DNA from: an uncultured Ignavibacteria bacterium
Lineage (GTDB): Bacteria > Zixibacteria > MSB-5A5 > UM-FILTER-46-8
Length of the DNA: 64,000 bases
Assembly (NCBI GenBank): GCA_964563085.1
Contig: CAZLVS010000011.1
Location: 8,328-72,327 of the forward strand
Direction: 5' to 3'
Position 1 is the first letter of the stretch; every line of letters starts with the position of its first letter. Below are positions 6,650 through 64,000 of the stretch, piece after piece. A program made the position numbers and the translations under genes. The notes beneath the pieces were generated by a model, which was not told the origin of the DNA, did not search any database, and saw nothing but the letters and a program-made list of their open reading frames with translations.

Positions 6650-6749
6650 AATACGAATACCTCATAAAAGAACAAAATTGATAAAATAATGAGCAATCAT
6701 ATAATTCAATGTAACGGAATATAATATCAGGAATTAATCTATGCAAATG

Positions 6750-7184: not shown

Positions 7185-7626
7185 CCTTTGATATCATCGC
7201 CTGCACAAAGTTTATAACTTCTTCCCTATTATCTGAAAATCTCAAATAAACTCCTCTGAAGTTCTCGAGCCTCGATGGTTTAACGAAAGGAGACAGAAAG
7301 ACGCCGTTGCTATCCGGGCAGCAGCTTCGGAATCTACTCCAATTATACGTTTTGACGCCGGAGAGGCTTCTTATCTCCACACCGTCCTGATTCATAGCAT
7401 ATCTGGTGGGAATATAAAATGAAGACAAAGATCCAACCATGATTATTACTGCCACAACAGTCAGCAAGGGACTATGAGTTGTTAAATATACCGTCACGAA
7501 AATTACTAAGAGAAAGATGCTGACAATCAGAGTCCGCTTCCAGCTTACGGCAGCGGGATGATTCACCCATTCAACGGCATTGTCGTTAGAATTCCGATTG
7601 GTCTCGATATCGTTCTTTCCGGACAT
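7144..7626 (-). CDS. Hypothetical membrane protein: two TM helices plus a possible bacterial PH-like domain
   Basis: Hydrophobic segments 'LIVSIFLLVIFVTVYL' and 'LLTVVAVIIMVGSL' followed by a soluble domain. Confidence 0.5.
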   Translation of the reverse strand: MSGKNDIETNRNSNDNAVEWVNHPAAVSWKRTLIVSIFLLVIFVTVYLTTHSPLLTVVAVIIMVGSLSSFYIPTRYAMNQDGVEIRSLSGVKTYNWSRFRSCCPDSNGVFLSPFVKPSRLENFRGVYLRFSDNREEVINFVQAMISKDEPKEGGDEDVSS

Positions 7627-43215: not shown

Positions 43216-43459
43216 TTTGGCTTGTATTATTCATAAATCCTATCAACGGTAGCGGAAGCCTTGCGCTTCCGGCGTTTCTTTGAGATACTTTATTTCAATC
43301 TGCAAATGACCTGCTCCTATTGAACTCCCGAAGGACAGGCTTTCGGCTGCGTATTAATGGGTTTCATGAATTATCCGGGTTAGGCGTCAAATCGATTTAC
43401 CGATTAGAGAGATAAAAATATTCTTGCTATCTGAAATGATCGATTATTATAATATTATC

Positions 43460-43548
43460 GGAGAGATGTCCGAGTTGGTCTAAGGAGCGCGCCTGGAGAG
43501 CGCGTAGGGGCCACAAGCTCCTCCTGGGTTCGAATCCCAGTCTCTCCG
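43460..43548 (+). tRNA. tRNA-Ser (anticodon GGA), class II with long variable arm; CCA not encoded
   Basis: GGAGAGA acceptor paired with TCTCTCC, D-arm GTCCGAGTTGGTCTAAGGAG, anticodon stem CGCGC/GCGCG with loop CTGGAGA, long variable arm, and T-arm GGGTTCGAATCCCAG. Confidence 0.9.
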
Positions 43549-43715
43549 TTTTCAATCTTGCCGTAACCTGCGTACTGCACTCGATTTACGGTTGAACAAA
43601 GTTTAATATAGATACGTTTAATTTATGTTATGGTTATCGGAGGTACAGCTAAGGATGCTGTGCATCTTATTTGGGCTCAAAAAAACGATTGAGTCGAGAA
43701 TGAAGGATAGAAAAT

Positions 43716-45554
43716 ATGGCTAAAGAATCTACACTCGATTTTGTTTTACGGGAATTTACGGTAGTTCCAACGAAATCGTCCTATAATGTTGAAACGCTAA
43801 GGGCAATCGCTGATAAATTTCTTGACAGGATGCGTTCGGCGGGAGGACTGTCTGCCGCTCGCGAAAGGCTGTACAGACTTATAAGTATCCATCAATTTGA
43901 TACGTTTGCCGGCAGCGAGGAGCTCCAGGAACACCAAACCTTCAGAATGCGCGATTGCGCTACTGCTTTGAAATTTATGCTGAAAGAGAGTTCCGATAGA
44001 TTCGCCGGTTTCAGCGTGGCTAAAGCGCTCTATGATATCGCTCGAGACGTCCCGCGTCCGGACCTGCAGCCCGGATTCTACGCCGAGATGATTCATTTAT
44101 TCTTGGGATTGCAGGGCGTTGTTTCCGATATGGTCTTCGAGAATACCTACTTCGACACAAACCTGGAGGGGCGCAAGGCGGCTATCGCTCGTTCCGAACT
44201 CCTGGATAGATACTGGGAGGAAAAGATCGAAGTCCAGATCCACAAGTACCGGCATGGTTTGCAAGAAGATATTATTAAACTGCGGAGTGTCAACCGTGCA
44301 AGGATACTCTCGGCATTGGGAGGAAGCGAAGAGGATTGGTATGATTGGAGGTGGCAGTTAAGAAATATAGTACGGGATGCGGATAGCCTCGCTAAATTGG
44401 TCAATATCACAGAGGATGACTACGAAGCCATTACTCAAGCAAAGAAGAACAGGATACCGTTCGGTATAACCCCGTATTATGTCTCGCTGATGGATGAAAC
44501 TCCCGGTAGAAACGATACCGCGGTACGCGCCCAGGTTATACCATCTCCTGATTATGTGAAGGTTATGTCGGAAGCCAAAGGCAAGAGTATATGTTCCTTC
44601 GATTTCATGTTAGAAAAGGATACGTCGCCTATAGATTTAATAACCCGACGATATCCGTCTATCGTTATCCTCAAACCATATAACACCTGTCCTCAGATAT
44701 GCGTTTATTGTCAGAGAAATTGGGAGATAGAGGATGTACTGGCTAAAGGCGCCATGGCAGCTAAAGAATCTATTGAGGCTGCAATAGAATGGATAAAAGA
44801 TCATCCAGCTATCCATGATGTATTAGTGACCGGCGGTGATCCGCTTGCTCTCAATGAAAATGTGCTGAAACGGATACTGGATAAACTCTCAGAAGTTTCG
44901 AGCATCGAACGGATACGAATAGGTTCGCGCACGCCGGTAACTATGCCGATGCGGATTACTCCCGAGCTGGTGAATTTGCTTGCTTCCTATCGGATTCCGA
45001 TGAAGAGAGAAATTACAGTAGTCACTCATGTTGAACACCCCTATGAGATTACCGAAGATATGTTCAATGCTGTCGAACTCTTAAGAAAGAATGCCATCAG
45101 CGTCTATAATCAGAATGTTTATACTTTTTATGTTTCTCGGAGGTTTGAAGGCGTTTTACTTAGAAGGCTGCTCAAAAGAGTTGGCATCGAACCATATTAC
45201 ACGTTTAATGCCAAAGGCAAGGAAGAAACCGCGGATTTTCGCGTGCCGATTGCCAGATTGCTGCAGGAACAGAAAGAAGAAGCCAGATTGCTGCCCGGAC
45301 TGAGCCGCACCGACGAAGCCGTATATAATGTGCCCGGTCTTGGTAAGAATTACCTGAGGGCATTTCAACATAGGGACATCCTGTCCATTTTACCTGACGG
45401 TTCGAGAGTTTACAACTTCCATCCGTGGGAAAAGAACATCAGCATCCAAAAGACCTATGTCGGAACCGATGTGCCGATTCTGGAATACCTCAATCGGTTG
45501 GAATCAATCGGCGAGGATATTGCAGATTATGAAACTATCTGGTATTATTTCTAA
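43716..45554 (+). CDS. KamA-family radical SAM aminomutase homolog (lysine 2,3-aminomutase-like) with an approximately 200-aa N-terminal extension
   Basis: 'DWYDWRWQLRN', 'ITPYYVSLMD', CxxxCxxC 'CPQICVYCQR', 'VLVTGGDPL', 'IRIGSRTPVTMPMRITPELV' all match KamA. There is no C-terminal Cys cluster. Confidence 0.8.
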   Translation: MAKESTLDFVLREFTVVPTKSSYNVETLRAIADKFLDRMRSAGGLSAARERLYRLISIHQFDTFAGSEELQEHQTFRMRDCATALKFMLKESSDRFAGFSVAKALYDIARDVPRPDLQPGFYAEMIHLFLGLQGVVSDMVFENTYFDTNLEGRKAAIARSELLDRYWEEKIEVQIHKYRHGLQEDIIKLRSVNRARILSALGGSEEDWYDWRWQLRNIVRDADSLAKLVNITEDDYEAITQAKKNRIPFGITPYYVSLMDETPGRNDTAVRAQVIPSPDYVKVMSEAKGKSICSFDFMLEKDTSPIDLITRRYPSIVILKPYNTCPQICVYCQRNWEIEDVLAKGAMAAKESIEAAIEWIKDHPAIHDVLVTGGDPLALNENVLKRILDKLSEVSSIERIRIGSRTPVTMPMRITPELVNLLASYRIPMKREITVVTHVEHPYEITEDMFNAVELLRKNAISVYNQNVYTFYVSRRFEGVLLRRLLKRVGIEPYYTFNAKGKEETADFRVPIARLLQEQKEEARLLPGLSRTDEAVYNVPGLGKNYLRAFQHRDILSILPDGSRVYNFHPWEKNISIQKTYVGTDVPILEYLNRLESIGEDIADYETIWYYF

Positions 45555-45599: not shown

Positions 45600-46526
45600 A
45601 TGAGAAAGTACCTGCTTAAGATAGCCATTTGTATTCTAATTACTCTACTGATTTCGGAGTACACGATCGCTGGAGATGTTGCAGGGGATAAACTCACGAT
45701 TAACATCCGCGAATATAGATTCATGCTGAAGCCATCCAAATTTGAGAACCGCAGGAGAGCTGCGCGGGAACTCTGGCAGATGGTCAAAGGCTACGCGGCA
45801 ATCAACAATGTTGCGGTTGTCCAAAAGGATCGGATGTTGTTTGAGACACAACAGGAACTGGTTTTCCTGGACACGCAGAAGGGCGATATTTATCGAAACG
45901 GCTATCTGCTTTACAGAGTTACGGAAGCAGCGCGGGGGAGGAAGAAAAACCGATATGATTTAGTTCTGGAACGCCGTTATGCAGATTTACAAACGGTAAA
46001 GAACACTGACCTCGGAGATGGCCTAAGTATGAGTGCGCGGATAATCCTTAAAGAAGAACTTCATCCTGATTCCGTATACACAAACGCCTTCCGACCGGTT
46101 TATTCATTAAAGATTATTGCCGAGGATTTGATGACAAGCATAGGGAAGAACGTTGGAGATTATGCCGAAATCTTTCCAATTCTCTCCGAGTTGAACGTCC
46201 CTGCGGATAGTGAACTCAAGCCTGTTAATGATATGGTATATATGGAATTGGGATATTCGCCGGGAGTCTTTAATTTCGGCGATGGGATAGAATCCGAAAT
46301 AAATATCAGCGTCATGTATGAATGGGATAAAAGGGGAGCGATTGTTGGCGAGCTCTTCTTCCGGCACGAAATTGTTGACTACGAAAATCTGCCTCCCGGA
46401 GCGCAGAAATGTACTGAATTTTTCAAGGGGCTTGCCGGCGAGCGGCAGGATTGGATACTGTATGATTTTTCGAAGGCGGGATTTACTTACGAGCATTCCT
46501 CCCGCAATAACAATGGTGATAAATAA
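45600..46526 (+). CDS. Hypothetical secreted protein (signal peptide; no recognised domain)
   Basis: 'MRKYLLKIAICILITLLISEYTIAG' signal. 308 aa. Confidence 0.5.
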   Translation: MRKYLLKIAICILITLLISEYTIAGDVAGDKLTINIREYRFMLKPSKFENRRRAARELWQMVKGYAAINNVAVVQKDRMLFETQQELVFLDTQKGDIYRNGYLLYRVTEAARGRKKNRYDLVLERRYADLQTVKNTDLGDGLSMSARIILKEELHPDSVYTNAFRPVYSLKIIAEDLMTSIGKNVGDYAEIFPILSELNVPADSELKPVNDMVYMELGYSPGVFNFGDGIESEINISVMYEWDKRGAIVGELFFRHEIVDYENLPPGAQKCTEFFKGLAGERQDWILYDFSKAGFTYEHSSRNNNGDK

Positions 46527-46567: not shown

Positions 46568-47479
46568 TCAAATAGCAACTTCTATACAGCGGTAGGAAAG
46601 TTCATTGAGGGGTAGTTCGCCCAGCAGAAGAACCGTATCGCCGCCTCCGGCGCCGGTAGGTTTAGCATAACCGCCGTTGTCCAATGCCCATCGCTTGAGC
46701 TCATCATGCACGGGGATACGATAGCTTATCCCTGCACTTGAACAGCATTTCGTAACTAAAGACGTGAACTCATCCAGGATGTCATAAAGGTCGGGCGGAG
46801 GTATCCTAAACCATTTCTCAGCCAATTCATCGCTTTTGTCAATCAGGCTTTTAAGACTTTTATTTTTCCTCCCGGTGTTTTTTATCCATTGGTTGAATTT
46901 CGTAACGAACTCACGGGTATCCGCTGACTTCCCGGTCCAAACCAGATTAATCGGTATCTTATAATCCGGATTGGGAGTATGCAATTGGTCCATGAAGAAA
47001 CCGTCCCGGTTACGCTTGAATACAATCGGTTTACCATAGGCGCAGACCGCGACATCGGCCCCGCTCCCCCGACCGCCTTGGGCGATTGTATGTGCATCGA
47101 TGGCGTATATCGCTGCCGAATACCTGTTCATCTCCCACGGTAAACCGGCGCGCTCAAATCGGAGTGCAATAACGCCGGCTGCTTCAGCGGCGGAGGAACC
47201 GATCCCCAGCTTAACCGCAGCGCCGCTGCCATCGCGAAAGTAAAAATCCGATCTGTCAATATCAACGCCCTGCAGGGGATGAGTGTGCTCGTAACCATCC
47301 AGTTCGGGAACAGGATATTGTATGGCGTTTTTCACAACCGGATTGGTGTTCTCCGCAGTTGGCGCATTCGATTCAGTGATTTTAAGGAAGCGAGGGACGG
47401 GGAAGAGAACAGCGCTTCCACCATAGAGAACAGCGTATTCCCCCGACAACATTACTTTTCCTGGCATGGTTACAGTCAT
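46568..47479 (-). CDS. GHMP-family kinase, most likely phosphomevalonate kinase (short form) of the mevalonate operon
   Basis: 'GKVMLSGEYAVLYGG', 'KLGIGSSAAEAAGV', 'GAGGGDTVLLLG'. Operon context with mvaD/HMGR-MVK/idi-2. Confidence 0.65.
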   Translation of the reverse strand: MTVTMPGKVMLSGEYAVLYGGSAVLFPVPRFLKITESNAPTAENTNPVVKNAIQYPVPELDGYEHTHPLQGVDIDRSDFYFRDGSGAAVKLGIGSSAAEAAGVIALRFERAGLPWEMNRYSAAIYAIDAHTIAQGGRGSGADVAVCAYGKPIVFKRNRDGFFMDQLHTPNPDYKIPINLVWTGKSADTREFVTKFNQWIKNTGRKNKSLKSLIDKSDELAEKWFRIPPPDLYDILDEFTSLVTKCCSSAGISYRIPVHDELKRWALDNGGYAKPTGAGGGDTVLLLGELPLNELSYRCIEVAI

Positions 47480-48456
47480 TTTTCTATTGAAATTATCTCG
47501 GCGCCTCCAGCCGGTTTACAGGAAATAAAGTGTGATTCACCGAGGTGATGCAGTATATTCTTAGTAATCTTTTCAGAATCACTCTGCCTGCATAAGACAA
47601 TAACGTTAGAACCGGCATCAACCGTGAAGTAGGCTTGTATACCGCTCTTTTCGCGAATGGAGCGAATTCCCCTAATAATTCTAAAGGTTGAATCATTCCA
47701 GTACAAAAGCGGTGGGCGTGATGCCATCATACAGCAATGCATGGCAAGCGCGTTTTCTTCCATTATACTGCCGATTGCTGCGAAATCATCCACTTCGATT
47801 GCAGACAGCATTTTCCGGTAATCCTCTCGGGCTTGCTTCACCCAACTGGAGTAATAGGGCGAAGTCTCCGCGCAGCGACGCATACCGAGCGATGAGGGCG
47901 TATCCTTTTGCTCGGAATGAGCGAGTAATACTATCATGCTCCATGGAACATCTTGCGGCTCTTTCAGTAATCTTGCGGACGGATCATCGTTGAGTGGAAA
48001 GGCTGATAATCCCCCGGTAATAGAACGCGCTGCCGAACCGCTTCCCTGGCGCGCTAATTTAGATAATTCCCTGTCGGAAAGCTTTCTTTCTGAGAATCCG
48101 CTCAAAGCTTTTGCTAATGCCGCGAATCCCGACGCGCTCGATGCCAGACCGGAAGATGTTGGGAAGCTGTTTTTCGATTCCAACAAAAAACTGCCCGCGA
48201 TTAGCCCTTTGTCCCGCCAGAGATCAAGATATTTCACGAGACGATGGTTTACTTCACCGGAAGTTTCCGCACCATTAAGGATGAATATATCGTTAGATTC
48301 TTCGGTTCGCGTTATGGTTGTTTCGGTAGTAAGTTTATCCAGAGCGAGCGAAATAGAGGGAGTGGCGGGAATATTCCCCGCTGTATCTTCCCGTTTTCCC
48401 CAATATTTTATCAAAGCGATATTCGAATATGCCCGGGCGATCACCCGCCGTATCAC
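47476..48456 (-). CDS. mvaD: Diphosphomevalonate decarboxylase
   Basis: 'AYSNIALIKYWGKRED', 'SSGLASSASGFAALA'. Confidence 0.85.
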   Translation of the reverse strand: MIRRVIARAYSNIALIKYWGKREDTAGNIPATPSISLALDKLTTETTITRTEESNDIFILNGAETSGEVNHRLVKYLDLWRDKGLIAGSFLLESKNSFPTSSGLASSASGFAALAKALSGFSERKLSDRELSKLARQGSGSAARSITGGLSAFPLNDDPSARLLKEPQDVPWSMIVLLAHSEQKDTPSSLGMRRCAETSPYYSSWVKQAREDYRKMLSAIEVDDFAAIGSIMEENALAMHCCMMASRPPLLYWNDSTFRIIRGIRSIREKSGIQAYFTVDAGSNVIVLCRQSDSEKITKNILHHLGESHFISCKPAGGAEIISIEK

Positions 48457-50759
48457 CGCAGCGCTCCCAACGTAAATGGAAACACCATCGGGAAATCATG
48501 GGATAGAGATTCCATCCAATCGAACTGGCTCCCGGGTTCGACCAAACCGATGACCGCGCCGCCGCCTCCGCTGCCGGTTAGTTTAGCGCCAATTGCGCCG
48601 TTTTCCAGCAAAAGCTCCACAGCCCTATCCAGCGCCGGAGTAGATACGCCCAGTTTTGCCAGAAGCTCATGATTCCGGAACATCAGTTTTCCGATTTCGT
48701 AGGTGTCACCGGTTCCCAATGCTATTCCGGCATCGACAGTCAGATTCCCGATATCTTCCAGGATACTGTTAACGTACTCCGGTTTTTGGTCGCGGAACCT
48801 CGCCACTTTCTTAACCAGCTCTATCGTTCTGGCGCCCGGTTCCACCAGGCATATTACGCCGCTTACCGGAGAGGGAACCTGGATCGGTAAGAACTCCCGC
48901 GGAGGTCCTTTACGGAACCAGAGCACCCCCTCAGAGAGAACGGTAGCCGCATCCATCCCGCTGGGATGGCCATGGAAAATCGCCTCCAGGTTCTGAACTT
49001 CATCAAAGAAATCGCTGTCCCATCTTTTTGACCGCCTCAGATGCTTATATTGCCGTAAAGCTGAGCACAGAGCGATTGAAAATGCTGCCGACGAACCTAA
49101 ACCCATGCCGGGAACCAGTTCGGATTCGATCTGGATGGCGATAGGTTCATTTCTTAGATCATATATTTCTAAGGCTACATCCACCGCATTTGAAAACAAT
49201 TGGATATCCTGGTCCGATTTGGGAACGGAAAACACCTTTTTAAAATGTGGATGAAGAAACCGGGGACCGTCAGGGTCCCTGGTAACTTTTAGCTTAATGC
49301 CGATATTGATGGCAGCGGCAATCCCGGGATAGTTGTAAACGGTAGCGTGTTCGCCAAACAGTACGATTTTACCGGGTGCGAATGTTTCTACTGGCAATTC
49401 ATCCTCTTCCTCTGTTCGTTTGGGCTGCTTCTGCAGCTTACGATATATATCCTCCGCAACCGTAATTTTAACCTCGCCCCGCCTTATCATCTCCTGCGCG
49501 ACTTCTTCCACGGCATTAGGAGGTACGCCAACGCTAACCGCAACACTGCGAGCATGCAGCGCCATGTGCCCCTTCTGAATGCCAACTGTGCTTAACGCCA
49601 ACAGGGCGGCGAAATTCTGCCCCAAGCCTACTGCGCTCAGCAATCCGGCTAATTGGCTGGCGTTTTCCACGCCGCTTATTGCGCGTAGAATTTGCACTCC
49701 GGGATGAGCTTTGACCGCGCCGCCCACGCTGCCGGTTTGCAGCGGCAGTTCGATTTCACCATGCAGACATCCGTTGGAAATCTTGTAGGTGGTAAGACCT
49801 CGGTAGATTCCATCTCGAGCGGCATATGCATGCCCGCCGGCTTCGATTGCTCGCCAGTCCTGACCCAATGCCAGGGCAGCGGCGCACAGTCCGTTAAATA
49901 TACCTTTGTTATGTGTCGCAGCCCGATAGGGATCCACATGCGCCAACCTATCAGCCTCAACCAAACGATGCGCCACCTCCTCGCCGGTGAATTCCTTCGT
50001 GGTTAGGTGTTCGAACGGCAATGTGAATTCGGCCCGAGCGATTCGCTTATCAGCGAGATTGGAAAGGATGCGAAGGTGCACACGGCCTCCGGTCACCATT
50101 TCAATCAGTGAGCCGACCGCTTCGCATGCGTAGTTGACCGCATTTGCTCCCATCGCCTCACAGACGTTAAAAAGCAGATGAACCACCAGCATCTCGCCGA
50201 CGCCTTCCCCACCATCCAAAATCCTGGTCTCGATATCAAAAACGCCGCCGCCTCTCTGCACCATTCGGGGATTTACCAGGTTCGCTTGAGCTATAATTTC
50301 ATCTTTATAATTCCCAATCTGTCTGACAGCTTCCTGCGGGTCTTTCAGGTCGAGTACCTGCACCTGCCCGATCATCACCGGATCGTTGATTCGGGTACGA
50401 AATCCTCCGCCCTTGCGAATTATCAGCGCCGCTTTTGATGCTGCGGCTATTATTGATGCTTCCTCGATCGCCATGGGAACCAGATACTCCCTGCCATCGA
50501 CCAGAAAATTCAATCCCAATCCGAGGGGTAAGCCGAAGACTCCCACGGCATTCTCCACCATGTTAACTGCATGCTTCATTCTCAGAGCGTTACCATTGCG
50601 GAGTTGCGAAACTTGTTCATCGTTTAGATTAAAACTCCGCGCCAGAAATGCGAGCCGTTGTTCAACCGACAATCGGTAAAATCCCGGTATCCGCGAAGTT
50701 CTGAATTCGGTTCCTCCGATAGGAGGTTTCTTAATGAATCGAAATCTATCCATTATCAA
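48453..50759 (-). CDS. Fusion protein: class II HMG-CoA reductase (N-terminal, about 430 aa) plus mevalonate kinase (C-terminal, about 330 aa)
   Basis: HMGR-II motifs 'ENAVGVFGLPLG', 'EAMGANAVN', 'GSVGG'. After the linker 'KRTEEEDELPVE' come MVK motifs 'APGKIVLFGEHATVYNYPGIAAAI', 'GMGLGSSAAF', 'KLTGSGGGGAVIGL'. There is no internal stop or start. Confidence 0.8.
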   Translation of the reverse strand: MIMDRFRFIKKPPIGGTEFRTSRIPGFYRLSVEQRLAFLARSFNLNDEQVSQLRNGNALRMKHAVNMVENAVGVFGLPLGLGLNFLVDGREYLVPMAIEEASIIAAASKAALIIRKGGGFRTRINDPVMIGQVQVLDLKDPQEAVRQIGNYKDEIIAQANLVNPRMVQRGGGVFDIETRILDGGEGVGEMLVVHLLFNVCEAMGANAVNYACEAVGSLIEMVTGGRVHLRILSNLADKRIARAEFTLPFEHLTTKEFTGEEVAHRLVEADRLAHVDPYRAATHNKGIFNGLCAAALALGQDWRAIEAGGHAYAARDGIYRGLTTYKISNGCLHGEIELPLQTGSVGGAVKAHPGVQILRAISGVENASQLAGLLSAVGLGQNFAALLALSTVGIQKGHMALHARSVAVSVGVPPNAVEEVAQEMIRRGEVKITVAEDIYRKLQKQPKRTEEEDELPVETFAPGKIVLFGEHATVYNYPGIAAAINIGIKLKVTRDPDGPRFLHPHFKKVFSVPKSDQDIQLFSNAVDVALEIYDLRNEPIAIQIESELVPGMGLGSSAAFSIALCSALRQYKHLRRSKRWDSDFFDEVQNLEAIFHGHPSGMDAATVLSEGVLWFRKGPPREFLPIQVPSPVSGVICLVEPGARTIELVKKVARFRDQKPEYVNSILEDIGNLTVDAGIALGTGDTYEIGKLMFRNHELLAKLGVSTPALDRAVELLLENGAIGAKLTGSGGGGAVIGLVEPGSQFDWMESLSHDFPMVFPFTLGALR

Positions 50760-51841
50760 ATTCCTTGTTTATCGAGCCATCCAAAGTTCAAAAGCCATTC
50801 TCTCAATTCACCGGTGAATATCCTGGGAATCCTCTTTAGTTCGGTTAAGTCGGCGGCGCCGGTCAAAAGCATAGCTGTCTTCAGCTCATGTATCATTTGC
50901 TCCATAAATTCGGCAGCTCCGTCTTTGCCATTATCAAGAAAACTAAGTAATATAGGGCGGGCAAATCCGGCGATATCCGCTCCCACAGCGATCGCTCGCG
51001 CAGCATCCAGGCCGTTTTCAATTCCGCCTGATGCCATTATGCAAGCCTTCTCATTTCGGATCCTGCGCGCCGCAATAAGACTGAATGCGGTCGGTATCCC
51101 CCAATCGGAGAATGTTTTGCCAGTTTGTTTGAGGAGTTTATCCGCCGCCCGATACATCTCCACTTTGGTCCAAGAAGTCCCCCCGGCTCCGGATACATCC
51201 AGATATTTAATCCCGATTTTCGATAGTTTCTTCAAACTCTCAGGGTCTATCCCGGCTCCCGTCTCTTTAACCATGACTTTGCCGTCTATCTTATCATTCA
51301 ATGCAGCCAAAGCATCGAGTAAACCGCGAAAATCCCGATGACCCTCATCCTGAATTAGTTCCTGTGCCGCATTCAGATGGACGCAGATTCCATCAGCTTC
51401 GATATCATCCATCAGACCAACTACGGCATCCAGGGGATACTCCCGTAACTCTCCAGCGCCGATATTACCCAGCAGGACGCCATCCGGTATCCATTTACGA
51501 ACCGCGAAATCATCTTTCATCTCCGGGTGGCGAAATATCACTCGCTGACTGCCCACACCGAATGCGATTCCGAACTCCGATGCGGTTTCTGCCAGGCCGC
51601 GATTCATCTCCCCGGCGAATTCGGCGCCTCCGGTCATGCCGGTAATCATCAGCGGATATTTCAGTTTTTTCCCGAAGAATTCAACTTCGGTCCGGATATC
51701 CCTTAAATCCAACTCCGGAAGGGCGCAATGCAGCAGGATTATATCACCCAGCATGGTGTTCCGACGGTGTTTCACTTCTTCCTCGGCAACAATCCGTAAA
51801 TGCTCCGATTTCCGCCTGGATATGGTCACATCATTTTCCAT
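50756..51841 (-). CDS. fni: Isopentenyl-diphosphate delta-isomerase, type 2 (FMN-dependent)
   Basis: TIM-barrel IDI-2 pattern 'PLMITGMTGG', 'FGVGSQR', 'VKETGAGI', 'LDVSGAGGTSW'. Confidence 0.85.
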   Translation of the reverse strand: MENDVTISRRKSEHLRIVAEEEVKHRRNTMLGDIILLHCALPELDLRDIRTEVEFFGKKLKYPLMITGMTGGAEFAGEMNRGLAETASEFGIAFGVGSQRVIFRHPEMKDDFAVRKWIPDGVLLGNIGAGELREYPLDAVVGLMDDIEADGICVHLNAAQELIQDEGHRDFRGLLDALAALNDKIDGKVMVKETGAGIDPESLKKLSKIGIKYLDVSGAGGTSWTKVEMYRAADKLLKQTGKTFSDWGIPTAFSLIAARRIRNEKACIMASGGIENGLDAARAIAVGADIAGFARPILLSFLDNGKDGAAEFMEQMIHELKTAMLLTGAADLTELKRIPRIFTGELREWLLNFGWLDKQGI

Positions 51842-53432: not shown

Positions 53433-56400
53433 ATGAAACGTTATCCAGCGCCTGCAATTTTGATTTTGTTGGCAATCCTCTTGCTGAGTCTGAATTCGAC
53501 AGGATTCGCGATGCAAGCAGACACAAAAGGGGAAGCGCTTTACGAGCTGAAAGTCAATTACCCCGGAGTTTCTACTTATCAATCCGGTAAACGAATTACC
53601 AGCTTATGGGGCATAACTTTCGGCTACGGCGCCAATCCGCAGGCAACCGCAGAGAACTTCCGGATGAATTATTCCGAAATCTTCGGTGTGGCACCGGCAG
53701 ATTTGAAACCCCACAGTCTCCTTCCCGACCAACGTCATACTCAACCCGTGATGTACAATCGGGAGAATGATTCTTATAAATTCACCCTGGTTTATTACAG
53801 CCAGTATAAAGAGGATATTCCGGTATTCCGTTCCGAACTCAGATTGCTGGTTCGCAACGAAGCCAATTATCCTTTGACGCTGGCGCGTTCGGCTTTGAAA
53901 GACTTAAAGGACTTCCGGGTTCCCTCCGGAGCAACCTTAAACAAAGGCTTAGCCGAAACAGCCGCGAAATCTTTCAATCCCAATCTGGATTACTTCGAAG
54001 AACCTCGTTTGGTTATCTGGGCTGGCGCCAACGAGGAAGCTGCTGAACCGAGATTAGCAATGGAAATTATCGGCGACAACAATAGGCCTGCTACTGACGA
54101 TTATGAAAAGTGGTTACTATTGGTCGATGCTTTAACCGGTGAGATACTGTATTCCGAAGATATGATTCTTAACGTTGATGTCGATGGCAACGTTAGCGGC
54201 AGAGCCACAGACAATTTCGCCGCAGAGATCTGCGACGATGAGGTCTCCTTCGGCATGCCTTATTCCCGTGTTTACATTCAGGGCGGAAATACTTCTTATG
54301 CCGATGAGTTCGGTGATTTCACCATACCGTTCGGTGGATCAGCGCCGGTGGATGTTTACTCCCATTTGCGCGGCTCCTGGTTCCGTGTGTATAACGAAGC
54401 CGGCGCCGAAGCGGAACTGGACACCACCGTAACCCCTCCGGGTCCGGCGAATTTCCTGCACAATTCATCCAATAGCAATGAATATGTGAGGGCGCAGGTT
54501 AACGGATACCTGCACGCCAACGTCGTTAGGGATTTTACACTGACTTATAATCCCTCCTACCCGGGTTTACAGCAAACCGAGTTTCCGGTAAATGTCAACA
54601 TCAACAGCAGTTGTAACGCTTATTACGATTATCAATCCATCAACTTCTACCGCTCCGGCGGCGGATGCCCGAATACAGCGTTTGGAACCGTGGTTCACCA
54701 CGAATACGGTCACCATTTGGTTGCCATGGCTGGAAGCGGCCAGGGGCAGTACGGCGAGGGTATGAGCGATTGCATGGGTGTAATGATTACCGATGATCCC
54801 GGTCTCGCTTACGGTTTCCTCGGAAACTGTAATGAACCGCTAAGGAACGCCGACAACAATAAGCAATATCCCTGCAGCGGCGGAATACATGACTGCGGAC
54901 AGCTCCTTTCCGGATGCGTTTGGGATACGCGCAACGCCTTAATGGCAAACTATCCCAACACCTACATGGATATTCTGGCTAATTTGGCGGTTAACGCTGT
55001 CTTACTGCACACAGGGGATCTGATCACTCCACAGATTACTATAGATTACCTGACCCTGGATGATGATAACGGTAATATCTATGACGGAACTCCTCATTAT
55101 AATGAGATCTGTTCCGGCTTCGGCGCTCATAATATGGATTGCCCCGATCTGCAATTGATCGCCTTCGATTATCCCAACGGTCTGCCGGAACTGTTTGATC
55201 CGGATGGCGGAACCACGATTCGCGTGGAAGTTTCAGGCATTACCGGTTCACCGGAGCCCGGCACCGGAATCATGTATTACAATGATGGCGGCGGATGGGA
55301 ACAGCAGCCGATGGATGTTGTATCTCCGAATGTTTACGACGCTGTCTTCCCGCCGTTTGAGTGCGGGCTGGTGATCGAATATTACTTCAGCGCAGAAACC
55401 ACCGACGGTTTCGTAGCTTATGATCCCTCGGGCGCTCCCGGAACCACTTACTCGGGTGTAGCCGCTCATGGTATGATCACGGTGTTCGAAGACGATTTCT
55501 CGACTGACCAGGGCTGGACAGGTTTGGGTGGTCAGGGCGAATGGACAATTGGACCTTGTATGGGCGGTAATGGCGACGACTATTACGGCGGTCCCGATCC
55601 TTCCGAAGACCATTCACCGACTTCGGATAACAGGGCGCTCGGTAACGACATGACAGCCGGCGATGGTGATTATGAAAACTACCTCGGAACCACTTACTGG
55701 GTAACCTCTCCCAATATCGATTGCTCCGGCGTCTATGCATTGCAGTTGAGCTTCTGGCGGTGGCTCGGAGTAGAACGGGATTGGTACGATGAAGCCTACT
55801 TCCAGGCATACAACGGTTCTTCCTGGATCACTCTTTGGGAAAATGGCAGCGAGACTATCGACGAAGCTTCATGGAGCGAGCAGAATTACGACCTCACAGG
55901 AATCGCCGACGACAATCCCAACTTCAAGATCAGATTCGGAATAGGGCCCACTGATGGTTCCTGGCAGTACTGCGGGTGGAATATCGATGATGTGCAAATC
56001 GTGGCTTATACCTGCGAACCGTCTGCAGATATCACTGTGGATATGATACCGGATAATCCTCCGATCGAAGTTCAGCCGGGCGGATATTTCACCTATACCG
56101 GAATACTGACCAATAACACTGCTCAACCTCAGAGCTCCGATGTTTGGGTGATGTTGGATGTGCCGGGTTATGGCAGTTACGGACCGGTTCAGCAGTTCAA
56201 CAATGTGCCTCTGGGGCCGAACCAAACCTTAAGTTATGAAGGCGCGCGGCAGAATATACCGGGATTCGCACCGTTGGGCGAGTATGATTATATCGCTTAC
56301 TGCGGCGACTATCCCAATTCGCCGGTCGATTCGGCATCCTTCACATTCACCGTTGTTCAGGGCATCGGCGGAGACGCTGACGGATGGATTTTGAACGGCT

Positions 56401-56693
56401 GGTTCAATGATGATATCGAAACTCTGCCTTCAAGGACCGAACTATTGGGCAACTTCCCGAATCCGTTTAATCCGACCACAACCTTCAGCTATGCCTTAGC
56501 TGATGAATCCAATGTGTCTCTGGAAGTCTACAATCTGATGGGACGTAAGGTAGCGACGGTATTTGAAGGTCATCAGGAAGCCGGTTACAGGACAGTTCAG
56601 TGGAATGCAGGAGATTATTCCTCAGGCGTCTACTTCTACAAGCTGACCGTTGATGACCAGGTATTTACCAAGCGTATGACCTTGTTGAAGTAA
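53433..56693 (+). CDS. Secreted thermolysin/fungalysin-like (M4/M36-type gluzincin) zinc metalloprotease, 1086 aa, with a T9SS C-terminal sorting domain
   Basis: Signal peptide. 'VVHHEYGHH' HExxH plus downstream 'GEGMSDCMG' (the E..SD third-ligand motif of M4/M36). Pre-CTD domain shared with 60199..61848 and 63103..64000. CTD 'NFPNPFNPTTTFSYAL...GVYFYKLTVDDQVFTKRMTLLK'. Confidence 0.8.
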   Translation: MKRYPAPAILILLAILLLSLNSTGFAMQADTKGEALYELKVNYPGVSTYQSGKRITSLWGITFGYGANPQATAENFRMNYSEIFGVAPADLKPHSLLPDQRHTQPVMYNRENDSYKFTLVYYSQYKEDIPVFRSELRLLVRNEANYPLTLARSALKDLKDFRVPSGATLNKGLAETAAKSFNPNLDYFEEPRLVIWAGANEEAAEPRLAMEIIGDNNRPATDDYEKWLLLVDALTGEILYSEDMILNVDVDGNVSGRATDNFAAEICDDEVSFGMPYSRVYIQGGNTSYADEFGDFTIPFGGSAPVDVYSHLRGSWFRVYNEAGAEAELDTTVTPPGPANFLHNSSNSNEYVRAQVNGYLHANVVRDFTLTYNPSYPGLQQTEFPVNVNINSSCNAYYDYQSINFYRSGGGCPNTAFGTVVHHEYGHHLVAMAGSGQGQYGEGMSDCMGVMITDDPGLAYGFLGNCNEPLRNADNNKQYPCSGGIHDCGQLLSGCVWDTRNALMANYPNTYMDILANLAVNAVLLHTGDLITPQITIDYLTLDDDNGNIYDGTPHYNEICSGFGAHNMDCPDLQLIAFDYPNGLPELFDPDGGTTIRVEVSGITGSPEPGTGIMYYNDGGGWEQQPMDVVSPNVYDAVFPPFECGLVIEYYFSAETTDGFVAYDPSGAPGTTYSGVAAHGMITVFEDDFSTDQGWTGLGGQGEWTIGPCMGGNGDDYYGGPDPSEDHSPTSDNRALGNDMTAGDGDYENYLGTTYWVTSPNIDCSGVYALQLSFWRWLGVERDWYDEAYFQAYNGSSWITLWENGSETIDEASWSEQNYDLTGIADDNPNFKIRFGIGPTDGSWQYCGWNIDDVQIVAYTCEPSADITVDMIPDNPPIEVQPGGYFTYTGILTNNTAQPQSSDVWVMLDVPGYGSYGPVQQFNNVPLGPNQTLSYEGARQNIPGFAPLGEYDYIAYCGDYPNSPVDSASFTFTVVQGIGGDADGWILNGWFNDDIETLPSRTELLGNFPNPFNPTTTFSYALADESNVSLEVYNLMGRKVATVFEGHQEAGYRTVQWNAGDYSSGVYFYKLTVDDQVFTKRMTLLK

Positions 56694-60198: not shown

Positions 60199-61848
60199 CT
60201 ATTTTAGTAAATGCATCCTCTTAGCCATAATCTGGTCGCCAGCCTGGAGCCGGTAGAAATAGACGCCGCTGGAGTGGTGAGAAGCATCCCAGGAAACAGT
60301 ATGCTGTCCTGCCGCAAGCCCGCCATTCACCAGAGTCGCGACCTTCTGCCCTAACAGGTTATGAATCTCAAGCTTTACGTTTTTGGCTTCGGACAGATTG
60401 AAAGTGATATTCGTTTGGGCGTTAAACGGATTGGGATAATTGCCCAAAAGTTCGAATTCCGCAGGGTTGCCCTTAACCGAATTCCATCCGCCTTCCACAT
60501 TCCACAAGTTACCGGAACTCTCTGACCTGTCACGTCCGGCAGCAACTGTAAATTGGAAGGAATCGGCAACATATATATTATCGGGGTAGTCACCGGCATT
60601 TGAGATATAATCGTAGGCTCCGGTTGGCGCAAAATTAGGCACGCTTTGATTAAGGTGCGCATTTATGCTCTGCCCCGAGTTAAGATATATATCCTGAAAA
60701 GTCCGCAACGGTCCATATTCGCCGTAGCCGGGAACATTCAGCATTAGCCAAACATCGGTCGTGACCGGATCGACTCCGGCATTGGTAAGGAATCCGGTTA
60801 ATCCGAATTGACCTCCCGGCGGTACTTCGATCGGATAATCATCAGGGATCATCGATATTTCAATATCCGGTGAAGATTCCTCGAACCAGCTCGATAAAAC
60901 CTCATAAGTCCAGCACTGTATACGCCCCCATTGCTGCGGTGTTAAGTCAGTCCAGCACGGACTTCCACCCAGAGTGCCGTAACTCATGTAGTTTTCGGGA
61001 GAAGTGTCACCCCAGGGGACTCCGCAGCAAGGATCGGTCCCGCCCGGATCGTAGCAGTAGTAATTGATAGGCGTTGGCGGCGTATCCGAACAGAGGTCGC
61101 CGGTGATGTCGGCATCCTGACCGTCCGCCTGCTCCCAGCACTCCCCGCACTGCGGTACTTCGCTTACACCATGGTGAGTATGCCACAAGCCTATCGTATG
61201 CCCGATTTCATGGACCAAAACATTGTCATGGAAAGGAGTGGGATAAACATGCCCTTCGCTCAGTACAACACCGCCCTGGTCGGAAAGAGGAAGACGGTAA
61301 TCATCCCATGGGAACGTACCGAAAGATCCGCCAGTAGTTCCGGTAATGTATATATTCATTTGCGATTCGGGATTGAGGGCATAAACTCGCTTCATCGCTT
61401 CCGCATCCGCATAATAACGGAATCGGGTAGAATTCACGAATCTGTAATCATAGACGAATTGAATTCTAACCTGTAGGTATTCCTCGTTAAGATGGTTTAC
61501 CATATCTTCCAGCGTAGCTTCATCGGTAGCGCAATTGCTTCCGTTGTCCTCGCAGAAGATGTGAAAATAAAGGCGAATATAAGCAATCGGATCATCGGGA
61601 TCAGGTATTGCCGCATCGCGATTCTCCGGCTCGTCACACGGTCCGTTGTAGCAATCATGATATAGCATACCATATTTCTCTATTTGTCCCTTTTTGTAGA
61701 TTTCCCAGGTTTCACAGAAACCATCCACATCCGCCAATGCGGTTGAAGAAGCGAGGGATATAGCGAAAAGCAGGAACGCTGCGAATGATATCCTCACTGC
61801 ATTAGTTGAGATTGTAGTCATCTCTTTTGGGTTGCGCTTCATGTTCAT
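60199..61848 (-). CDS. Secreted metzincin (M43/pappalysin-ulilysin-like) zinc metalloprotease with a T9SS C-terminal sorting domain
   Basis: Signal peptide. 'HEIGHTIGLWHTHH' (HExxHxxGxxH). Cys-rich region. Shared pre-CTD domain. CTD 'NYPNPFNAQTNITFNL...GVYFYRLQAGDQIMAKRMHLLK'. Confidence 0.8.
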   Translation of the reverse strand: MNMKRNPKEMTTISTNAVRISFAAFLLFAISLASSTALADVDGFCETWEIYKKGQIEKYGMLYHDCYNGPCDEPENRDAAIPDPDDPIAYIRLYFHIFCEDNGSNCATDEATLEDMVNHLNEEYLQVRIQFVYDYRFVNSTRFRYYADAEAMKRVYALNPESQMNIYITGTTGGSFGTFPWDDYRLPLSDQGGVVLSEGHVYPTPFHDNVLVHEIGHTIGLWHTHHGVSEVPQCGECWEQADGQDADITGDLCSDTPPTPINYYCYDPGGTDPCCGVPWGDTSPENYMSYGTLGGSPCWTDLTPQQWGRIQCWTYEVLSSWFEESSPDIEISMIPDDYPIEVPPGGQFGLTGFLTNAGVDPVTTDVWLMLNVPGYGEYGPLRTFQDIYLNSGQSINAHLNQSVPNFAPTGAYDYISNAGDYPDNIYVADSFQFTVAAGRDRSESSGNLWNVEGGWNSVKGNPAEFELLGNYPNPFNAQTNITFNLSEAKNVKLEIHNLLGQKVATLVNGGLAAGQHTVSWDASHHSSGVYFYRLQAGDQIMAKRMHLLK

Positions 61849-63102: not shown

Positions 63103-64000
63103 CTATTTCAGCAATGTCATCCGTTTAGTGAGAGCTTCGTCTCCTGCGGTTAATTTGTAGAAGTAGATACCGGATGACTGACTTGAAGCATCCCAAATTA
63201 CACTATGCAGACCGGCATCCATGTAACCCTCAACCAATGTTGCCACTTTCTGTCCCATGATGTTATAAACTTCAATGGCAACGTCACCGGCTTTCGGCAA
63301 CTCGTAGGTTATGGTTGTGGTGGCGTTAAACGGATTAGGGAAGCTGCCAATTAAAGCATATTTGCTGGGAATCTCAGCGGAATCAAATCCGCCCTCAAGA
63401 ATCCATCCATCAGCGCCATCAGCGGTTCGAGCGCCGCTAACAGTGAACGGGAAGCAGAAGGAATCATCCTTCACGCTCGGGCGATCACCGCAATAGCAGC
63501 AGTACTGATACTCTCCCTGAGGAGCGTAACCGGGCACATTTTGCCGCATATGTGCGCTTATGTGCTGTCCCGGATTAAGGGGACGATTGGGAAAACTAAA
63601 CTGCTGATAGAAATTTCCGAATCCCCATACGCCGCCCCAGATATCGGTAACAATGGTCTCGTTACACGGATTTTCGATATGTCCGGTTACGCCGAATCTA
63701 CCGCCAGGCGGCACAATAACCGGGTCCTCGTCAGGAACCATCCAGATATTGCAAACGCATTCGCCGGCATCGGCGTATAACCGGAATTCATGGTATGCAT
63801 CCGATTCCGTATCGAAAACGAAGTAATTAAAGAACTCCTGTTCGACCATATACTGGATTGAGAACCGCATATCATACTCGGTAAAAGCCTCGATTCCAGG
63901 ACCGGTGGAATACCACCTTACACCGCCAAGAGGGCGAGGATTACCGCGAGGATCATAATAGACGAATTCAGAATACCACGGTCCCGTTCCCGTGGGAGCG
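63103..64000 (-). CDS. T9SS-CTD secreted protein, 5'-truncated at the window edge. The frame is open to position 64000; the ORF-track M at 63870 is internal.
   Basis: Shares the approximately 100-aa pre-CTD domain ('MVPDEDPVIVPPGGRFGVTG...CFPFTV') with the two metalloproteases. CTD 'SFPNPFNATTTITYEL...GIYFYKLTAGDEALTKRMTLLK'. Confidence 0.7.
   Translation of the reverse strand, partial: APTGTGPWYSEFVYYDPRGNPRPLGGVRWYSTGPGIEAFTEYDMRFSIQYMVEQEFFNYFVFDTESDAYHEFRLYADAGECVCNIWMVPDEDPVIVPPGGRFGVTGHIENPCNETIVTDIWGGVWGFGNFYQQFSFPNRPLNPGQHISAHMRQNVPGYAPQGEYQYCCYCGDRPSVKDDSFCFPFTVSGARTADGADGWILEGGFDSAEIPSKYALIGSFPNPFNATTTITYELPKAGDVAIEVYNIMGQKVATLVEGYMDAGLHSVIWDASSQSSGIYFYKLTAGDEALTKRMTLLK

Follow-up and report, generated by a model that had tools for sequence, protein, structure and literature searches.

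The window analysed here, a 64,000-nucleotide stretch of DNA, carries the gene for a long KamA-family radical SAM protein, one uninterrupted open reading frame with an ATG start (Table 1). Upstream of it lies a tRNA-Ser(GGA) gene on the forward strand (43459-43549), with a terminator-like hairpin at 43643-43663 between the two. The adjacency of the tRNA was considered as a functional link, and nothing was found to suggest that it is relevant. The other upstream genes encode PTS enzyme I, a PGI/SIS protein, an NTP-transferase, MetK and AhcY, and downstream follow a 308-aa protein with no family match and then a mevalonate operon on the opposite strand. MetK and AhcY were likewise weighed as a SAM-related link and set aside, this neighbourhood being absent from the recurrent clusters in other loci. 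The initial annotation had described the gene as standing alone; indeed, no kamDE, kdd, kce, kal or ablB gene occurs in the annotated flanks within the window, nor is efp or epmA among its annotated genes. A search for a riboswitch or leader upstream of the gene with Rfam gave the tRNA only.

Table 1. Coordinates of the long KamA-family gene and of the parts and residues of its product
Feature	Position in window	Strand	Basis and remarks
Long KamA-family radical SAM protein ORF	43716..45554	+	Complete, 612 aa plus stop; ORF list and translation
AAGGA, Shine-Dalgarno-like (RBS-like) motif	43703..43707	+	8 nt 5' of the ATG; read from the sequence, putative function
Family-specific all-helical N-terminal domain, residues ~20-150	43773..44165	+	Conservation, dN/dS, AF2
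Two long helices, residues 151-200	44166..44315	+	Also present N-terminally in glutamate-aminomutase-type proteins
KamA/LAM-type radical SAM core, residues 201-515	44316..45260	+	TIGR00238, 348 bits; 2A5H, E=4.5e-49; Foldseek
CPQICVYC, CxxxCxxC [4Fe-4S]/SAM motif (C325, C329, C332)	44688..44711	+	Invariant, 25/25; aligns with LAM C125/C129/C132
R334, LAM Arg134 equivalent	44715..44717	+	Alignments; invariant in homologues
TGGDPL, equivalent of the SGGDAL SAM-binding motif of LAM	44829..44846	+	Alignment; T372, G373, G374, D375 and P376 invariant
K500, aligned with LAM Asp293, the distal substrate-binding residue	45213..45215	+	YYxFNxKGK motif; invariant
C-terminal region, residues 516-612	45261..45551	+	Beta-meander and two helices (AF2); no Cys
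N538, invariant Asn at or beside the LAM Asp330 position	45327..45329	+	Alignment-dependent
K544, putative PLP lysine in the PGLGK loop (LAM Lys337 equivalent)	45345..45347	+	MAFFT and hhalign; invariant

The open reading frame encodes a genuine and probably functional KamA-family protein. Such enzymes require a [4Fe-4S] cluster, SAM and PLP, and shift an amino acid's amino group from C2 to C3. All the motifs that the initial annotation had read from the translation are present, namely DWRWQ (residues 210-214), ITPYYVSL (251-258), CPQICVYC (325-332), TGGDPL (372-377), IGSRTPV (402-408) and RITPELV (413-419). The HMM comparison proposed at that time bears out the family assignment, in that the protein passes only the generic KamA subfamily model, TIGR00238 (cutoff 199.2 bits, match over residues 198-540), and fails every function-specific one; TIGR00238 is also matched by 25 of 25 aligned homologues at E<=1e-20. 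Homology to lysine 2,3-aminomutase (LAM) does begin near residue 205, as had been claimed, with residues 204-515 aligning to chain residues 13-308 of PDB 2A5H. A full-length AF2 model (pLDDT 83.8, pTM 0.83) has a LAM-like fold when compared with 2A5H by Foldseek (E=5e-23, TM 0.73 target-normalised, 424 columns), and this LAM structure is the best match among solved structures.

The long protein is not a one-off and is part of a large, widespread, conserved and so far uncharacterised family. An identical protein is found on 4 public contigs, and comparison with a 91% identical orthologue in the Zixibacteria MAG WJIR01000223.1 (L012) gives an overall dN/dS of 0.076. Homologues of about 600 aa, with the N-terminal extension conserved, occur at 50-66% identity in at least 10 bacterial phyla; members were seen in Zixibacteria, Latescibacterota, Ignavibacteria, Omnitrophota, Acidobacteriota, Myxococcota, Planctomycetota and Desulfobulbia. 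In databases they go under no more specific label than "KamA family radical SAM protein", or else under "lysine 2,3-aminomutase", the latter name being carried by many members through JGI annotation. It had been foreseen that the extension might turn out to be a known domain of a well-characterised subfamily, such as a clade of glutamate aminomutases, and nothing of the kind was found: neither the family libraries nor the full-text literature searched contain a characterised subfamily of this architecture, and the literature searches found no published study of it and no biochemical data.

The extension had been described as a novel domain of about 200 aa. An unannotated extension is indeed real, but residues ~150-200 align with the N-termini of glutamate-aminomutase-like (Eam-like) proteins, an hhalign comparison of the two family alignments beginning at residue 150 of the long protein and residue 14 of the Eam-like proteins; the unmatched part is therefore only about residues 20-150. 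This part is conserved in 25 of 25 aligned homologues, with R49, R79-D80, F99-S100, F121 and a P-R-P-D-L-x-P-G-F-Y-A-E motif invariant, has a dN/dS of 0.053 against the Zixibacteria orthologue, and forms helices at pLDDT ~90 in the full-length AF2 model. The first ~20 residues of the protein are variable and of low AF2 confidence. The domain is without a match in Pfam, NCBIfam or PDB sequences, and a Foldseek search of the PDB reached at best E 0.34, with generic 4-helix bundles. A profile search of 1.84 billion representatives gave 218 matches, and among the matches listed, those of ~600 aa or more carry the domain at the position it has in the long family. Matches of ~190 aa were candidates for stand-alone versions; all stop at the start of the core (DWxDW), and the seven short matches that were read are contig-end fragments. 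The domain was always seen fused to the core and never as a separate protein. This constrained module probably lies against the barrel, either covering it as a lid or serving in oligomerisation, and in doing so probably takes the role that the Zn-linked C-terminal domain has in LAM.

At the other end of the protein, the C-terminal region finishes in a near-invariant DYETIWYYF tail, has no match to the Pfam domain LAM_C, and shows the lowest dN/dS of the whole protein (0.020). The distance from the Cys motif to the end is 280-281 residues in 11 of 11 long-family proteins examined. There are five cysteines in all (81, 293, 325, 329 and 332), with a single CxxxCxxC and none beyond residue 332. 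The C-terminal Zn-Cys cluster is thus missing, as the initial annotation had it, but its absence is not distinctive, since Eam-like proteins, BlsG, EpmB and other KamA proteins also do without; among the proteins compared, the cluster is a trait of LAM/AblA.

Placement within the family was addressed with equivalog models and a simple tree. The equivalog models returned 246, 204, 188, 143 and 138 bits, with the glutamate 2,3-aminomutase model at the top, yet the protein falls below the cutoffs of TIGR04368 (glutamate, 245.8 vs 650 bits, the match beginning at residue 153), TIGR03820 (lysine, 204 vs 525), TIGR04468 (the arginine 2,3-aminomutase BlsG, 188 vs 600) and TIGR03821 (EpmB, 138 vs 369). 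Core identity is ~30% to every subfamily compared. In a neighbor-joining tree, a simple method applied here to 309 gap-free core columns with 100 bootstraps, the long family was monophyletic in 100 of 100 replicates and grouped with the Eam-like references in 2 of 100, these references themselves lying just below the TIGR04368 cutoff (595 vs 650 bits). In this simple tree of core sequences, the long family is its own deep clade and not a subgroup of the glutamate aminomutases.

The cofactor motifs CxxxCxxC, GGDP, IGxRT, PYY, NQ and THxxHP are invariant in the long family. So is R334, whose LAM counterpart, Arg134, we take to bind the substrate alpha-carboxylate. The putative PLP lysine K544 aligns with LAM K337 and Eam-like K388 in both MAFFT and hhalign, at a place where AF2 confidence is only ~55-60. 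As regards substrate binding, phmmer, BLASTP, hhalign and MAFFT alike place K500 opposite LAM Asp293 and the Eam-like Lys. The YYxFNxK motif around it is common to the long family and the Eam-like proteins only, among those compared, and Asp occupies the position in 8 of 8 reference proteins of Lys/Arg type or unassigned. A published signature of glutamate 2,3-aminomutase consists of Lys for LAM Asp293 and Asn for Asp330 (PMC3965090). The equivalent of Asp330 is N538 if the alignment is anchored on the Pro (YNVPGLGK vs VDAPGGGGK) and Y537 by gapless MAFFT/hhalign, and neither candidate is Asp. Two further changes set the long protein apart: LAM R116 and R130, which are Arg in all other KamA proteins compared, including the Eam-like ones, are I316 and V330 here, a swap that hints at altered cofactor or substrate contacts. 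Additional invariant charged residues (K502, E504, R531, D533 and E534) surround the pocket.

Taken as a whole, the active site looks, as judged from its residues, most likely suited to an acidic amino acid such as glutamate and not to lysine, so that the different substrate or role suggested in the initial annotation finds support in the replacement of the lysine-binding Asp293 by Lys. We tentatively propose that the long protein is a SAM- and PLP-dependent amino-acid 2,3-aminomutase of a distinct deep clade that would act on glutamate, a reading to which we would give a probability of roughly 0.45. Membership of the family, the conserved motifs and residues, the fold, purifying selection and the phyletic spread are shown by the data, whereas the use of PLP, the aminomutase reaction, an acidic substrate and the part played by the N-terminal domain are inferred. 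The mechanism can be modelled on that of lysine 2,3-aminomutase. The cluster bound by C325, C329 and C332 would cleave SAM reductively to yield a 5'-deoxyadenosyl radical. A free alpha-amino acid, its carboxylate held by R334, would replace K544 on PLP as an external aldimine; the radical would then take a hydrogen from C3 and the PLP-bound nitrogen would migrate from C2 to C3. The invariant K500 in place of LAM Asp293, together with K502 and N538 close by, makes recognition of an anionic side chain most likely, and the leading candidate reaction would be L-glutamate to beta-glutamate. Several observations run against this reading. They include the score on TIGR04368 (246 of 650 bits) and the place in the tree, where the long family and the Eam-like proteins do not come out as sisters, so that the shared Lys may be convergent. 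The Y537/N538 ambiguity, I316 and V330, the low AF2 confidence at K544 and the lack of a conserved neighbour also belong here.

Among the nearest known systems is the glutamate 2,3-aminomutase Eam (TIGR04368, SFLD PLP-dependent radical SAM subgroup), known from the Clostridioides difficile enzyme (Ruzicka and Frey 2007, as cited in PMC11284099 and PMC3965090). Like Eam, the long protein has a radical SAM and PLP core, a Lys at the Asp293 position within YYxFNxK, and a helix pair ahead of the DWxDWxWQ motif, and it likewise lacks a C-terminal Zn-Cys cluster; the Asn of the Eam signature may have a counterpart in the invariant Asn at or beside the Asp330 position. Unlike Eam, to which its core is ~32% identical, it has an additional helical domain of ~130 aa and a different C-terminal stretch of ~95 aa ending in DYETIWYYF; its PLP loop is one residue shorter, and it is without equivalents of LAM R116 and R130. 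With LAM itself (KamA/AblA) it has in common the fold, CxxxCxxC, GGD, the Arg that binds the carboxylate, the PLP Lys and the general succession of secondary structure elements, whereas the lysine-binding Asp pair, the Zn-binding Cys268/375/377/380 and the ablB or lysine-fermentation partners are missing and 200 residues are added at the N-terminus. EpmB (YjeK) and BlsG belong to the same superfamily and also do without the C-terminal Cys cluster; unlike the long protein, the two have retained Asp at the Asp293 position, are no longer than 342 and 388 aa, and lie beside efp or blasticidin-type biosynthetic genes.

Gene neighbourhood offers limited further guidance. Open reading frames within ±7 kb were clustered for 67 non-redundant loci, with family annotation for part of the neighbours, and no conserved operon partner emerged: the most frequent cluster, a response regulator, is present in 10 of 67 loci, largely of Ignavibacteria and Zixibacteria, and probably reflects lineage synteny. 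The earlier remark that known pathway partners are missing can be set beside the related loci, where none of the neighbour families exceeds 10 of the 67. The gene immediately upstream encodes a co-directional aminotransferase in 5 of 67 loci, of class I/II in L004, L006, L072 and L075, where start and stop overlap or are a few bases apart, and of class III in L029. A gene of the dicarboxylate/amino-acid:cation symporter family is located divergently upstream in 4 loci (Pfam SDF, as shown for L008). Such neighbours hint at free amino-acid metabolism. An apparent 1307-aa fusion at L072 was rejected as an ORF-extension artefact, the upstream gene being a class I/II aminotransferase in another frame.

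The same radical SAM/PLP aminomutase chemistry might instead be directed at a free amino acid other than Glu, Lys or Arg. The substrate would then be a different amino acid, acidic or polar, or else a metabolite with an alpha-amino acid moiety, in a new pocket shaped by the N-terminal domain and the family-specific residues, and the enzyme activity would be a new one. The deep clade with its full bootstrap support and no grouping with Eam-like proteins, the failure of all equivalog models, the loss of both LAM arginines uniquely here among the subfamilies compared, and the extra invariant charged residues of the pocket are all consistent with such a substrate, and 50-66% identity across phyla suggests a tightly constrained, specific role. 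Moreover, in one Latescibacterota genome (L011) an Eam-like gene lies directly beside the long gene, and the coexistence of the two paralogues argues against simple functional redundancy. These observations do not point to any particular alternative substrate; K500, possibly together with N538, is the published glutamate signature, and the aspartate-aminotransferase-like and symporter neighbours fit glutamate equally well. We regard this alternative as possible, though it is less favoured than glutamate. It is somewhat doubtful that the family carries out a radical SAM/PLP reaction still undescribed, be it an amino-group shift or radical chemistry of a related kind, with a substrate that is none of Glu, Lys and Arg. 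Were that so, the N-terminal domain would supply substrate- or partner-binding residues in place of LAM R116/R130, and the 50-66% identity kept by anaerobic sediment bacteria of at least 10 phyla would be the sign of a metabolic step that has gone unrecognised and is under strong constraint.

It seems improbable that the protein is no amino-acid aminomutase at all and that the KamA scaffold acts on a macromolecule or peptide, or has a role in regulation or structure, recognition being left to the N-terminal domain. The stand-alone gene without a conserved partner in 67 loci, the very high conservation across phyla, as is usual for enzymes whose cellular targets are conserved, and the Arg-rich conserved motifs of surface type in the N-terminal domain would all suit a role of this kind. 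Degenerate relatives (P0213 and P0229), in which the scaffold, the N-terminal domain and the C-terminal tail persist but the Cys motif and PLP Lys are gone, show in addition that the fold can be retained without catalysis. However, R334 and K544, expected to hold a free alpha-carboxylate and to form the PLP aldimine, are invariant, and the N-terminal domain is unlike any known RNA-, DNA- or peptide-binding fold. No KamA-type enzyme except EpmB is known to be linked to a macromolecular pathway, and even EpmB has free lysine as its substrate, which further weakens the case.

An ordinary lysine 2,3-aminomutase (KamA/AblA) is highly unlikely. That name has been given automatically to many of the homologues, and LAM is the best match of solved structure, but the protein reaches less than half the TIGR03820 cutoff, has Lys for Asp293 and no Asp at either candidate for Asp330, and has no ablB, kamDE, kdd, kce or kal near it in the window, and none of the neighbour families is present in more than 10 of the 67 loci. 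The notion that the extension is an artefact, from a mis-called start, a two-gene fusion or a decaying gene, draws on the variable, low-confidence first ~20 residues and is already refuted by the conservation data, residues 20-200 aligning, many of them without variation, in homologues of at least 10 phyla, in a single uninterrupted frame with an RBS-like site, a dN/dS of 0.05 and an N-terminal domain packed confidently by AF2 in the full-length model.

Few KamA-type aminomutase activities are known to us, those on Lys, Glu and Arg and that of the EF-P-related EpmB. The long clade is large and strongly conserved across many poorly studied anaerobic phyla, under labels that are generic or wrongly specify lysine 2,3-aminomutase, and definition of its substrate would correct many of these labels in public databases. 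It could also reveal widespread production of beta-glutamate or another beta-amino acid in sediments, whether for use as an osmolyte or as a metabolic intermediate, and would show how a classic radical enzyme is modified by a new helical domain and by changes to its active-site arginines. The long family is represented in cultured Desulfurivibrio strains (L066 and L069), so the question is open to experiment.

The comparison with family models proposed in the initial annotation placed the long KamA protein within the KamA subfamily (TIGR00238, NCBIfam; 348 bits, cutoff 199) and far outside every function-specific family: glutamate 2,3-aminomutase (Eam; TIGR04368, 246 bits, cutoff 650), AblA lysine 2,3-aminomutase (204, cutoff 525), arginine 2,3-aminomutase (188, cutoff 600), AblA-like-2 (143, cutoff 396) and EpmB (138, cutoff 369). 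Pfam recognizes the generic Radical_SAM domain alone (residues 320-432), with nothing in residues 1-200 and no match to LAM_C. The motifs listed at that stage, DWRWQ through RITPELV, all lie where they had been placed (see the table). The sole related solved structure is lysine 2,3-aminomutase (LAM) of Clostridium subterminale, PDB 2A5H (E=4.5e-49, query residues 204-515). An AlphaFold2 model of the protein, with 25 homologues in the alignment (pLDDT 83.8, pTM 0.83), matched 2A5H in Foldseek over 424 columns (E=5e-23, target-normalised TM 0.73), so the LAM-type fold is predicted to take in the region past residue 515, which sequence methods do not align to 2A5H.

Features of the window (nucleotide positions) and motifs of the long KamA protein (residues)
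Feature	Position	Strand	Remarks
375-aa protein	2628-3755		neighbour of GlmL/MutL-like gene; no match
GlmL/MutL-like protein	4046-5893	-	615 aa
NYN-domain protein	5933-6649		neighbour of GlmL/MutL-like gene
Por_Secre_tail protein	15659-17713	-	
tRNA-Ser(GGA)	43459-43549	+	same strand as long KamA gene; ARAGORN
Terminator-like hairpin	43643-43663		between tRNA-Ser and long KamA gene
AAGGA motif	8 nt upstream of long KamA ATG	+	sequence inspection
Long KamA ORF	43716-45554	+	612 codons uninterrupted; ATG start
308-aa ORF	45600-46526	+	starts 45 nt downstream of long KamA gene
Mevalonate-pathway operon	46568-51841	-	beyond 308-aa ORF; opposite strand to long KamA gene
Por_Secre_tail protein	53433-56693	+	
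Por_Secre_tail protein	60199-61848	-	
Por_Secre_tail protein	63103-63870	-	
DWRWQ	residues 210-214		
ITPYYVSL	residues 251-258		
CPQICVYC	residues 325-332		
TGGDPL	residues 372-377		
IGSRTPV	residues 402-408		
RITPELV	residues 413-419		

The long family (the protein and its homologues of about 600 aa) was compared with five Eam-like proteins, an annotated AblA, BlsG, AblA-like-2, three unassigned KamA-family proteins, E. coli EpmB and LAM. For LAM, residues 13-308 came from the alignment with 2A5H, and in the full sequence used every published residue number lands on the expected residue. Kept throughout the long family are the three cluster cysteines, the GGD motif, IGSRTP, PYY, NQ and THxxHP, along with R334, which lies two residues past the third cysteine and corresponds to LAM Arg134. 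An invariant K544, in the loop PGLGK, falls opposite Eam-like K388 and the PLP-binding Lys337 of LAM (MAFFT and hhalign agree). The protein is probably a functional [4Fe-4S]/SAM/PLP amino-acid 2,3-aminomutase, a class assignment that is not in itself surprising. On the model of LAM, SAM would be cleaved at a cluster held by C325, C329 and C332, R334 would bind the substrate carboxylate, and PLP released from K544 would form an external aldimine with the substrate; hydrogen abstraction at C3 would then be followed by migration of nitrogen from C2 to C3.

The residues of the distal pocket suggest an acidic substrate. At the LAM Asp293 position, all eight Lys/Arg-type or unassigned references have Asp, the Eam-like proteins have Lys, and the long family has an invariant K500; both lysines lie within a common YYxFNxK motif, and the likeness may reflect common ancestry or convergence. 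Lys in place of Asp293 and Asn in place of Asp330 are a published signature of glutamate 2,3-aminomutases (PMC3965090). The Asp330 position is ambiguous in the long family: anchoring on the conserved proline (YNVPGLGK vs VDAPGGGGK) gives an invariant N538 and a Gly loop one residue shorter, whereas gapless alignments give Y537; BlsG and a Bradyrhizobium protein show comparable variation in loop length. Having K500 where LAM has Asp, with K502 and N538 close by, the distal pocket would be expected to receive an anionic side chain. We put the probability of the full reading, an aminomutase with an acidic, glutamate-like substrate, at about 0.45; the leading candidate reaction is L-glutamate to beta-glutamate.

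The main alternative, which we hold to be less likely, keeps this chemistry but applies it to another, so far undescribed substrate; several features of the family speak for it. LAM Arg116 and Arg130, kept in every other protein compared, Eam-like included, are lost, their places taken by invariant I316 and V330. The family also branches deeply: in a neighbour-joining tree of 309 gap-free core columns (100 bootstraps; a simple method with thin reference sampling) it was monophyletic in 100/100 replicates, on a long branch, and grouped with the Eam-like clade in 2/100, and its mean identity to each other subfamily is 25-32%. Given this tree and the failed equivalog scores, labelling the protein a glutamate 2,3-aminomutase would not be warranted. 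Further, a Latescibacterota contig (WVZY01000064.1) carries, divergent from its long gene, a gene for a 427-aa Eam-like KamA protein (6206-7489, minus strand) that scores 595 bits with TIGR04368, just below the cutoff, and whose specificity positions hold Lys and Thr. With both genes side by side, neither protein is simply a substitute for the other. That Eam-like gene adjoins an M20 peptidase and an ATP-grasp/M20 fusion, and the group may form a beta-amino-acid peptide pathway. The new N-terminal domain likewise favours a different substrate.

This extension is real and defines the family. It had been described as novel over about 200 residues, which holds for residues ~20-150, unmatched elsewhere, and fails for its last two helices: profile-profile alignment with Eam-like proteins starts at residue 150 and the TIGR04368 match at 153, so these helices are common to Eam-type proteins. 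Structure prediction, suggested at the same time, gave an all-helical domain (eight predicted helices, residues 25-201), confidently packed in the full-length model and unmatched in Pfam, PDB sequences and Foldseek against PDB structures, where the top match was a generic four-helix bundle (E=0.34). The protein has five cysteines (81, 293, 325, 329, 332) and none past the radical SAM motif; the C-terminal Zn-Cys cluster is indeed missing, but this is not distinctive, since among the KamA proteins compared only LAM and AblA have it.

The best 120 matches in a database of 5.8 billion proteins are nearly all 590-617 aa long (query coverage 94-100%, identity 54-66%), three shorter ones being probably truncated, and where named are called 'KamA family radical SAM protein' or 'lysine 2,3-aminomutase'; long-family sequences are already public under generic or wrong names. 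A pattern scan for the N-terminal domain, one genome per species, found 66 loci in Zixibacteria, Ignavibacteria, Latescibacterota, Omnitrophota, Acidobacteriota, Myxococcota, Planctomycetota, Fibrobacteraceae, Anaerolineales and Desulfobulbia (including Desulfurivibrio alkaliphilus and the isolate Desulfurivibrio sp. D14AmB), and domain and core form a single ORF in every locus long enough to judge. A profile search of 1.84 billion cluster representatives returned only 218 proteins, the short matches inspected being contig-end fragments that end at a DWxDW motif. Measured against the closest relative, from a Zixibacteria MAG (L012, 91% identical), dN/dS comes to 0.053 in residues 1-150, 0.074 in the core and 0.020 in the last 97 residues. 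The domain, which is under constraint, always fused to the core and packed with confidence in the model, could plausibly serve as a lid, in oligomerisation or in binding a partner. Family libraries yielded no characterised member and nothing curated more finely than the KamA subfamily, and a literature search found no paper on this architecture; the initial annotation had named a known domain in a characterised subfamily as the finding that would undo its proposal, and a search for one came up empty. The clade, its N-terminal domain and the altered arginines are worth an experiment by a radical SAM specialist.

The profile search also returned two metagenomic proteins, P0213 (926 aa) and P0229 (899 aa), that keep the N-terminal domain, core scaffold and C-terminal NIWFYY/NIWFHY tail, lack CxxxCxxC (TSQSILYC, TSPQSMVYP) and the PLP lysine (R or T instead), and carry an extra acidic, low-complexity N-terminus of ~320 aa. 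By sequence these degenerate relatives look like pseudo-enzymes; the genomic surroundings of P0213 were uninformative. In P0137 (822 aa), a fusion or mis-call, a TetR_N DNA-binding domain precedes a complete long KamA protein.

The surroundings of the long KamA gene are of a housekeeping kind, with genes for PTS enzyme I, a PGI/SIS protein, a nucleotidyltransferase, MetK and AhcY on its upstream side. As first described, the gene stands alone near a tRNA-Ser, with no ablB, kamDE, kdd, kce or kal among the window genes. Rfam gave no riboswitch upstream of it. The neighbourhood comparison proposed earlier, over 67 non-redundant loci, found no broadly conserved partner, the commonest cluster being a response regulator (10/67). 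A co-directional aminotransferase lies directly upstream in five of the 67: in L004, L006, L072 and L075 it is of class I/II, with start/stop overlap or a gap of a few bases, while L029 has a class III enzyme. Four loci have, upstream and divergent, a gene of the dicarboxylate/amino-acid:cation symporter family (in L008 with a Pfam SDF match), and one has an MscS channel upstream; these neighbours hint at amino-acid or osmotic metabolism. The stand-alone context and the catalytically dead relatives lend some support to a role other than that of an aminomutase, which is disfavoured by the invariance of the carboxylate-binding arginine and PLP lysine. An ordinary lysine 2,3-aminomutase is effectively excluded, in keeping with the different substrate or role first suggested, as is an extension arising from annotation error.

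The product of the 308-aa ORF has no Pfam or NCBIfam match and a hydrophobic, signal-like N-terminus, and its pairing with the long gene recurs only in L012. The mevalonate operon encodes a single 768-aa protein that joins HMG-CoA reductase with a mevalonate-type GHMP kinase. Its other products are a diphosphomevalonate decarboxylase, a type-2 IPP isomerase-like protein (FMN_dh) and a protein of 303 aa that lacks a Pfam match and looks GHMP-kinase-like by eye. Run over all 64 kb of the window at gathering thresholds, Rfam gave zero matches, not even the tRNA-Ser, a filter-sensitivity effect; with 700 nt scanned the tRNA scored 52.6 bits (gathering score 29).

GlmL assists two B12-dependent systems, glutamate mutase and ornithine aminomutase, as their accessory protein. 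The GlmL/MutL-like protein of the window matches Pfam PF13941 (431 bits), falls under the NCBIfam GlmL cutoffs and has no recognisable mutase subunit gene adjoining. The four proteins with a Por_Secre_tail (type-IX-secretion C-terminal sorting) domain, one of them a papain-family protease, fit an FCB-group (Zixibacteria-like) source.
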